This document shows positions 35,988-36,413 of a stretch of 64,000 bases of DNA, one piece after another (the stretch's first letter is position 1; every line of letters starts with the position of its first letter). This DNA is from a virus (taxonomy: Duplodnaviria; Caudoviricetes). Location of the stretch: positions 9,199 through 73,198 of the IMG/VR virus record IMGVR_UViG_3300033067_000113, one strand, 5' to 3'. Below the pieces are notes generated by a model. That model saw nothing but the letters and a program-made list of their open reading frames with translations, made no database searches and was not told where the DNA came from. Position numbers and translations under genes: made by a program.

Positions 35988-36413
35988 ATGTCATGGACTT
36001 ATCAGAATCAGCTCGTAGAAACATTACCTGAAGATTGTGTTGGGTTTGTGTACATCATCACAAATATTATCTCTGGCAGAAAATACATAGGCAAAAAGCT
36101 CGCCAAATTCTCAAAGACTACAACTAAAACTGTAACCTTAAAGAATGGCACAAAGAAGAAAAAGAAGATTCGTAGCAAGGTCGATTCAGACTGGCGCGAG
36201 TACTACGGAAGTAGTCCAAATCTTCAAAAAGACATAGACACACTAGGCAAAGAAAACTTCACAAGAGAAATCCTATATTACTGCAACTCTAAGGCGCAAT
36301 GCTCTTATATCGAGGCAAGAGAACAATTTTCCCGCAAAGTATTAGAATCAGACGACTATTACAACGGACACATTCAAGTTCGTGTACATGGGTCACACAT
36401 ATTAAAATCTTAG
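35988..36413 (+). CDS. Stand-alone GIY-YIG endonuclease
   Basis: 141 aa with GFVYII...RKYIGKK, helix YIEAREQF (metal-binding Glu) and YYNG. A Lys-rich insertion follows YIG, and there is no C-terminal DNA-binding domain. Confidence 0.85.
   Translation: MSWTYQNQLVETLPEDCVGFVYIITNIISGRKYIGKKLAKFSKTTTKTVTLKNGTKKKKKIRSKVDSDWREYYGSSPNLQKDIDTLGKENFTREILYYCNSKAQCSYIEAREQFSRKVLESDDYYNGHIQVRVHGSHILKS

Follow-up and report, generated by a model that had tools for sequence, protein, structure and literature searches.

Several characterized GIY-YIG nucleases bear on the gene described here. The closest in sequence is T4 SegE, a 205-residue protein with a C-terminal DNA-binding part, which is a homing enzyme (Kadyrov 1997, as cited in PMC10055350). 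The catalytic domain of I-TevI (PDB 1LN0/1MK0) has a helix alpha1 carrying Arg27 and His31, and is followed by a linker and DNA-binding domains. T4 endonuclease II (DenA; PDB 2WSH), an enzyme of about 140 aa from a T4-type phage, stands alone and is encoded beside genes of nucleotide and DNA metabolism. The eukaryotic proteins Slx1 and At-HIGLE use the GIY-YIG fold to cleave junctions or flaps without reading sequence, and they carry a RING domain or need a partner; Slx1 lacks the C-terminal Asn (PMC1564403). Some T4 relatives can dispense with endonuclease VII (gp49) or have other nucleases in its stead, and marine cyanophages lack several genes of this kind (Petrov et al., PMC2993671).

A structured RNA beside a small nuclease gene is also the arrangement of the HEARO RNA and the IscB omega-RNA, which belong to the same 2010 survey as the Polynucleobacter-1 motif. 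To our knowledge, HEARO and IscB always co-occur, and the HEARO RNA carries a guide. Most Polynucleobacter-1 examples in that survey lay downstream of genes of family GOS11034, for which possible homology to PSSM2_218 of cyanophage P-SSM2 was given, and no example was found in purified phage (Weinberg et al. 2010; PMC2864571, supplement). We found PSSM2_218 to be a homologue of the protein analysed here (38% identity, E 1e-18), and the linkage of gene and RNA was thus already on record, with the identity of the nuclease not then named.

The locus lies in a 64,000-nucleotide stretch of DNA (hereafter the window) taken from a 73-kb IMG/VR virus record, and its features are listed in Table 1. It consists of a gene for a stand-alone SegE-type GIY-YIG endonuclease and, behind it, a separate RNA gene whose product is an extended version of Polynucleobacter-1. 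Of the two, the RNA is more unusual than the protein.

Table 1. Features of the window, and the gene that takes the place of the GIY-YIG gene at a related locus (L131).
Feature	Position	Strand	Evidence or description
SbcD-like (gp47) and SbcC-like (gp46) recombination nuclease genes	32742..35545	+	phrog_100 E 1e-67, phrog_77 E 8e-106
GIY-YIG endonuclease gene, SegE-type, stand-alone	35988..36413	+	ATG start, 141 aa; Pfam, PHROG, model
RNA 5' domain, Rfam RF01718 (Polynucleobacter-1)	36431..36576	+	cmscan 84.7 bits, E 4.8e-18
RNA 3' extension outside the Rfam model	36577..36893	+	conservation, covariation, alignments
Segment A of the RNA	36729..36743	+	same-base covariation with segment B
Segment B of the RNA	36790..36804	+	same-base covariation with segment A
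GATAAATA box	36899..36906	+	conserved 5' of the next gene; consensus ATAAATAT in the alignment of relatives
Gene after the RNA	36924..37997		357 aa
PDDEXK_15 gene in L131	L131:3963-4484		between SbcC-like gene and RNA

The 141-residue product matched all 123 positions of the PF19835 (SegE_GIY-YIG) profile with E 3.4e-33 and 114.9 bits (cut-off 25), and phrog_447 with E 2.3e-37. No second domain was found in it, and the chain ends 12 residues past the conserved N126. An earlier note, made from the letters of this DNA, had read the protein as a catalytic core without a DNA-recognition domain; the full-length profile match agrees with that, and the motifs it quoted are present. Residues Y22, Y33, G35, K37, Y72, S75, E109 and N126 were invariant in 74 diverse relatives and R93 was nearly so; R70, at first sight a candidate for the canonical Arg, was not conserved in the same set. 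The hallmarks of the GIY-YIG superfamily are in place, namely a three-stranded sheet bearing the tyrosines of GIY and YIG (Y22, Y33), the catalytic Glu (E109) and the C-terminal Asn (N126).

An AlphaFold (AF2) model built from the 74 relatives (mean pLDDT 96.5) places the Lys-rich residues 40-66 in a beta-hairpin, with strands at 40-50 and 56-66. It contains no helix between beta2 and residue 77 and has no counterpart of the canonical alpha1 Arg (Arg27 of I-TevI). The earlier note had proposed that a Lys-rich hairpin replaces the Arg-bearing segment, and the model bears this out. The top structural matches were without exception GIY-YIG domains: the I-TevI catalytic domain came first (Z 8.7, 82 of 92 residues, rmsd 2.6), with the two Tyr, the Glu and the Asn aligned, followed by PD-T4-3 (Z 7.3), the UvrC N-terminal domain (Z 5.6) and T4 endonuclease II (Z 5.4), while Slx1 and At-HIGLE matched weakly (Z 3.1-3.9). 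A Foldseek search against the PDB also put I-TevI on top (probability 0.99), with nothing below E 0.001, and the family profile gave no match at E up to 10 to the sequences of solved structures. In sequence, the likeness to I-TevI is marginal (hhalign probability 25%).

T4 SegE, by comparison, belongs to the same catalytic subtype (hhalign probability 97.7%, E 2.4e-12, 83 columns). The two proteins share FVY, YIGK, Y-x-GS, F-x-R-x-IL, the conserved Glu and YYN, and both lack alpha1. The missing helix is therefore a trait of the whole SegE-type domain and, since SegE is an active enzyme, no argument for inactivity. Where SegE has a short loop, the window protein has a basic hairpin of 27 residues, and it ends after the core. 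Among close relatives this hairpin hardly varies (the K52-N53-G54 turn, K56 and K59 do not change at all, R62 almost never), and it is the mark of a stand-alone branch of the SegE-type domain. Judged by its residues, the 141-aa enzyme looks active, and the function of the canonical Arg is probably taken by K37, R93 or a hairpin residue such as R62, which are the candidates.

The family, which has Pfam and PHROG entries, is huge, and the 141-aa protein is a new and routine member of it. It takes in at least 8000 clusters at 90% identity (E below 1e-5) and 2291 representatives at 50% identity, mostly of 130-160 aa. About 140 of the 150 listed representatives stand alone; one of the roughly 10 longer ones carries the NUMOD3 DNA-binding motif and the others resemble fusions with neighbouring genes. 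In GenBank, RefSeq and PHROGs (phrog_447) the label 'NAD synthetase' is widespread for the family, a misnomer, as the domain is that of a GIY-YIG nuclease. Isolated phages with the protein number 496, with one copy each, and are mainly T4-like cyanophages; the closest homologue among them is that of Methylophilales phage Melnitz (52% identity). PF19835 was present in exactly one copy in 5/5 genomes checked, three of them complete. A bacterial origin of the gene was rejected: of 16 matches in 'bacterial genomes', 15 are contigs from MAGs or uncultured bins with discordant taxonomy, which look like mis-binned phage DNA, and one is from an isolate, Pseudogemmobacter (38% identity).

The gene follows the SbcCD-like genes in the window, and the order gp46, small ORFs, GIY-YIG gene is kept almost throughout 80 close IMG/VR relatives (73-91% identity). 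Identity was higher for the GIY-YIG protein than for gp46 in 55 of 63 loci, and dS was mostly saturated (median 2.1), with dN/dS about 0.08 where measurable. Together with the near-invariant hairpin, these values indicate long-term purifying selection, not recent spread. Further afield, in cyanophages, the neighbours of the gene vary. Synechococcus phage S-SSM4 has the homologous nuclease gene followed some 195 nt later by a tRNA-Arg gene (L235:2447-3148), another structured-RNA gene adjoining a GIY-YIG homologue.

Four related loci (L131, L110, L122 and L159) have, in the place of the GIY-YIG gene between gp46 and the RNA, a different nuclease gene that encodes a PDDEXK_15 protein (PF24608) of 168-176 aa, and at L098 a PDDEXK_15 gene lies just downstream of a weak RNA match. 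When the whole records of five contigs were searched, PF19835 was absent from four, one of them 302 kb long and about 85% complete, and the record of L112 gave only a sub-cut-off match (15 bits). None of the three large genomes checked has both families: G006 (345 kb, 99% complete) and G007 (347 kb, 100%) have PF19835 and lack PF24608, G004 (302 kb, 85%) has PF24608 and lacks PF19835, and all three lack endonuclease VII (PF02945). Every sampled RNA locus downstream of gp46 with enough upstream sequence has one nuclease or the other, and no empty site, with neither, was found among the gp46-linked RNA loci sampled. The PDDEXK_15 protein matched phrog_244, 'RusA-like Holliday junction resolvase' (E 2e-20), and its model (pLDDT 83) resembled Hje (Z 7.8), three Hjc proteins (Z 6.0-6.6), RecU (Z 5.7) and a Thermus phage resolvase (Z 5.5).

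Endonuclease VII was absent from 9 of 10 genomes that carry the GIY-YIG gene, in a search that found the T4 positive control. PF02945 was not found in P-SSM2, P-HM1, S-SSM4, Melnitz, ACP17 and G011; in BUCT-ZZ01 the match was below threshold and broken by stop codons, and S-SKS1 has both PF02945 and the GIY-YIG gene.

The conserved single copy, the SbcCD-like neighbours, the lack of an empty site and the Hjc-like replacement in place point to one essential role that either of two unrelated enzymes can fill. Adding the family, the fold, the intact residues and the purifying selection observed for the gene, we see an even chance that its product is an active stand-alone, Mg-dependent endonuclease that works independently of the RNA, is probably structure-selective and fills the role of endonuclease VII. 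The gene would then be a strongly constrained, single-copy part of the phage replication/recombination module. Grip on the DNA would come from the conserved basic beta-hairpin and probably also from oligomerisation, and the enzyme would select the shape of DNA (branches, junctions, nicks) and not its sequence, which is the mode of Slx1 and At-HIGLE. Its task may be debranching and Holliday-junction resolution, as for gp49 in T4. A structure-selective endonuclease, which the context favours, would need no sequence-reading domain.

Several observations count against this proposal. The structural similarity to Slx1, a known junction nuclease, is weak (Z 3.1-3.2) and lies below that to I-TevI; PF02945 and the GIY-YIG gene co-exist in S-SKS1, and the neighbours of the gene vary in cyanophages. 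The resolvase Z scores of PDDEXK_15 are below 8, and the replacement argument draws on a handful of contigs. Finally, the complete 161,882-bp genome G011, which has terminal repeats, carries a GIY-YIG gene 75.5% identical to that of the window (L209:366-782) next to the genome end, and its gp46 homologue (L214) is 27% identical and about 113 kb away from it. No match to the RNA was obtained by nhmmer in this genome even at E 10. A close nuclease gene with a distant gp46 implies horizontal transfer of the nuclease gene without the RNA, as expected of a mobile gene.

Such transfer would suit a free-standing, Seg-like selfish homing endonuclease that cuts gene 46 or the RNA gene of phages without it and spreads via repair of the cut, with PDDEXK_15 as a competing homing gene at the same site. 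The closest characterized relative, SegE, is a proven homing enzyme. Two unrelated nucleases at one site and unrelated ORFs inserted just downstream of the gene would also fit, as would weak matches to 'homing endonuclease' and 'group I intron endonuclease' models in PADLOC and NCBIfam. (Membership in a defence system was rejected, only a weak generic 'homing endonuclease' model having matched.) One rare relative has NUMOD3, but the window protein itself, with 141 aa and a single domain, has no C-terminal DNA-binding module of the NUMOD, HTH or zinc-finger kind. Homing genes are typically sporadic and decaying, whereas this one, unlike SegE, is conserved, occurs once per genome and is present in nearly all of its clade, no empty site having been seen among the gp46-linked RNA loci, and the conservation above that of gp46, the saturated dS and the low dN/dS tell the same way. 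We consider homing an unlikely explanation.

It is rather improbable that the protein is instead a counterpart of T4 endonuclease II (DenA), that is, a small oligomeric low-specificity nickase of host DNA that prepares it for degradation to nucleotides by the gp46/47 exonuclease. gp46 and gp47 take part in the breakdown of host DNA in T4, and the window gene follows theirs; denA follows directly after nrdB in T4, just as the homologues of Melnitz, BUCT-ZZ01 and S-SKS1 lie directly after nrd genes. The similar size, the single-domain build and the place of DenA among the structural neighbours add to the likeness, but a sequence relationship is undetectable (hhalign probability 0.3%), and orthology with DenA was rejected on that figure. 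The Hjc-like nature of the in-place substitute also speaks for junctions rather than bulk DNA, and nothing indicates that phage DNA is told apart from that of the host.

With a structure-selective endonuclease VII substitute as the preferred reading of the protein, we turn to the RNA. The RF01718 match spans model positions 1-141 of 141, well above the gathering score of 37, and starts 18 nt past the stop codon of the nuclease gene, where the earlier note had expected a structured RNA at about 20 nt. A group I intron or other RNA class in the gap was rejected, as cmscan at E up to 1 returned RF01718 only. The RNA continues beyond the Rfam model into a 3' extension, its best-conserved part, with at least nine covarying helices including a GUUGA/UCAAC pseudoknot. 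At about 460 nt (from 36431 to about 36893), the full RNA is three times as long as the Rfam model. A structure completed by hand, with 17 helices and 79 pairs, had 88.4% of cells paired across 66 sequences, against 38-45% in controls in which the partner was slid by one to three columns, and 58 of the 79 pairs showed changes on both sides. Within the Rfam region helices 1, 5 and 8 covary, and helix 6, the outer stem in the register used here, fails. Single-sequence folding of the gap gave no signal (z = -0.25 on the + strand) and was thus uninformative, so the structure is settled by covariation alone; the frequent G-U pairs place the RNA on the + strand. A variant form consists of the 3' domain only (HMM positions 215-442).

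Simple scans found no promoter or terminator of the RNA's own on the + strand between gene and RNA, and the RNA is probably co-transcribed at the 3' end of the same early operon as the GIY-YIG gene. The GATAAATA box likely marks the 3' limit of the RNA unit; we take it to resemble the T4 late promoter, consensus TATAAATA. The gene behind this late-promoter-like box encodes an Ala/Gly/Pro-rich protein without a family match, of which only the N-terminus (MKIYEI...) is kept in relatives, the remainder evolving very fast.

The 80 closest homologues were surveyed for the RNA, and 75 were informative. A full-length RNA starts between 4 nt before and 47 nt after the GIY-YIG stop codon in 54 of these, a 3'-domain or partial form is adjacent in 11, the RNA lies 944-1203 nt downstream beyond an inserted ORF in five, and no RNA was found in five. 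The RNA thus adjoins the gene in 65/75 loci and lies within 1.2 kb in 70/75, and the linkage persists in some loci down to 39-45% protein identity. The intervening ORFs, of 238-379 aa (L011, L020, L022, L029 and L052), are neither one family nor copies of the downstream 357-aa gene; the junction of gene and RNA is a hot spot for cargo insertion.

Outside this clade the two part company. The wider family lacks the RNA: blastn found none in the whole collection of isolated phages, of which 496 carry the protein, and a covariance model found none in Melnitz, BUCT-ZZ01 and ACP17. The earlier note had named, as one outcome that would refute its idea, homologues that usually lack the downstream structured gap, and this is the situation in the wider family. 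In the other direction, a reverse search with a conserved RNA motif yielded 65 true RNAs. The one clear RNA locus with neither nuclease is L112, where a weak 3'-domain match follows a DNA polymerase III alpha fragment with no nuclease nearby. Of 121 Polynucleobacter genomes, 13 also have RF01718, in some cases on a complete chromosome, with no GIY-YIG gene within 1.5 kb. Three of these copies (L242, L243 and L246) lie in divergent orientation to a conserved gene without known function that encodes about 160 aa, and one copy lies near a tyrosine-recombinase (integrase) fragment. Such a setting is suggestive of a genomic island and gives a hint that these phages infect Polynucleobacter. Each nuclease is found with the full-length RNA at some loci and with the 3' domain alone at others, and the two thus show no sign of co-adaptation. 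An RNA without the GIY-YIG gene and a GIY-YIG gene without the RNA indicate that adjacency reflects a shared place in a conserved operon, not dependence. Of the partnership suggested in the earlier note, then, the proximity of gene and RNA stands and its obligate character does not, co-occurrence failing both ways, unlike in HEARO/IscB and other OMEGA-like systems. Its further suggestion that the RNA supplies specificity finds no support, given the RNA beside the unrelated PDDEXK_15 gene, the RNA without the gene in Polynucleobacter and the gene without the RNA in G011.

The RNA has a further property. Segments A and B, of 14 nt, each follow GUGAC, and across 66 RNAs they change to the same base and not to a complementary one. 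Positions 36735/36796 read A,A in 35 RNAs and G,G in 30, with one discordant; 36736/36797 read G,G in 62, A,A in two and C,C in two; 36739/36800 read A,A in 51 and G,G in 15; and 36741/36802 read T,T in 63, A,A in two and G,G in one, with no discordant RNA at the last three. A tree from which the A and B columns were left out gave 13-14 changes at the first site and 10 at the third (36739/36800), with about 30 parallel changes overall, and phylogenetically independent pairs were concordant in 8/8 cases at the first site and 5/5 at the third. No internal complementary partner of A or B was found in the 66 RNAs, and no other RNA columns share the signal. Watson-Crick or palindromic self-pairing between A and B was rejected by hand, as it is not kept in the variants. 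A search of the 64-kb window for a third copy or a complement gave near matches at chance level only, and in this search no guide segment like that of HEARO was found. The pattern suggests two sites for one external (trans) partner, or a pairing or conformational switch.

That the nuclease and the RNA form a two-part machine, the RNA giving target specificity or a scaffold, we regard as very improbable: the tight spacing at most close loci, the lack of a promoter or terminator between the two, the linkage at low protein identity, the twin segments without an internal partner and the HEARO/IscB precedent are set against an RNA that also accompanies an unrelated nuclease or none, complete genomes that have the protein but not the RNA, ORFs of other kinds that intervene in 5/75 loci, A and B segments that are the same whichever nuclease lies upstream (L131), and variable linkers that are low-complexity A/T runs.

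For Polynucleobacter-1, an orphan motif since 2010, the locus supplies a place in jumbo phages. Its occurrence in phage contigs of up to 345-347 kb and its length of about 460 nt go beyond the published motif, as do the form with the 3' domain only, the identity of the upstream family as a GIY-YIG nuclease and the finding that the linkage is not obligate. In the most far-reaching case, to which we attach very little probability, the RNA would be a trans-recognition RNA whose A and B segments read one external sequence twice and which acts with the adjoining nuclease, GIY-YIG or Hjc-like; the locus would then be a module by which jumbo freshwater phages process DNA under the direction of an RNA or on an RNA scaffold. 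For the nuclease, the Hjc-like replacement and the absence of endonuclease VII from most carriers offer a testable answer to an old gap, the debranching enzyme that prepares DNA for packaging in T4-like cyanophages, in pelagiphages and in the freshwater relatives of these phages.
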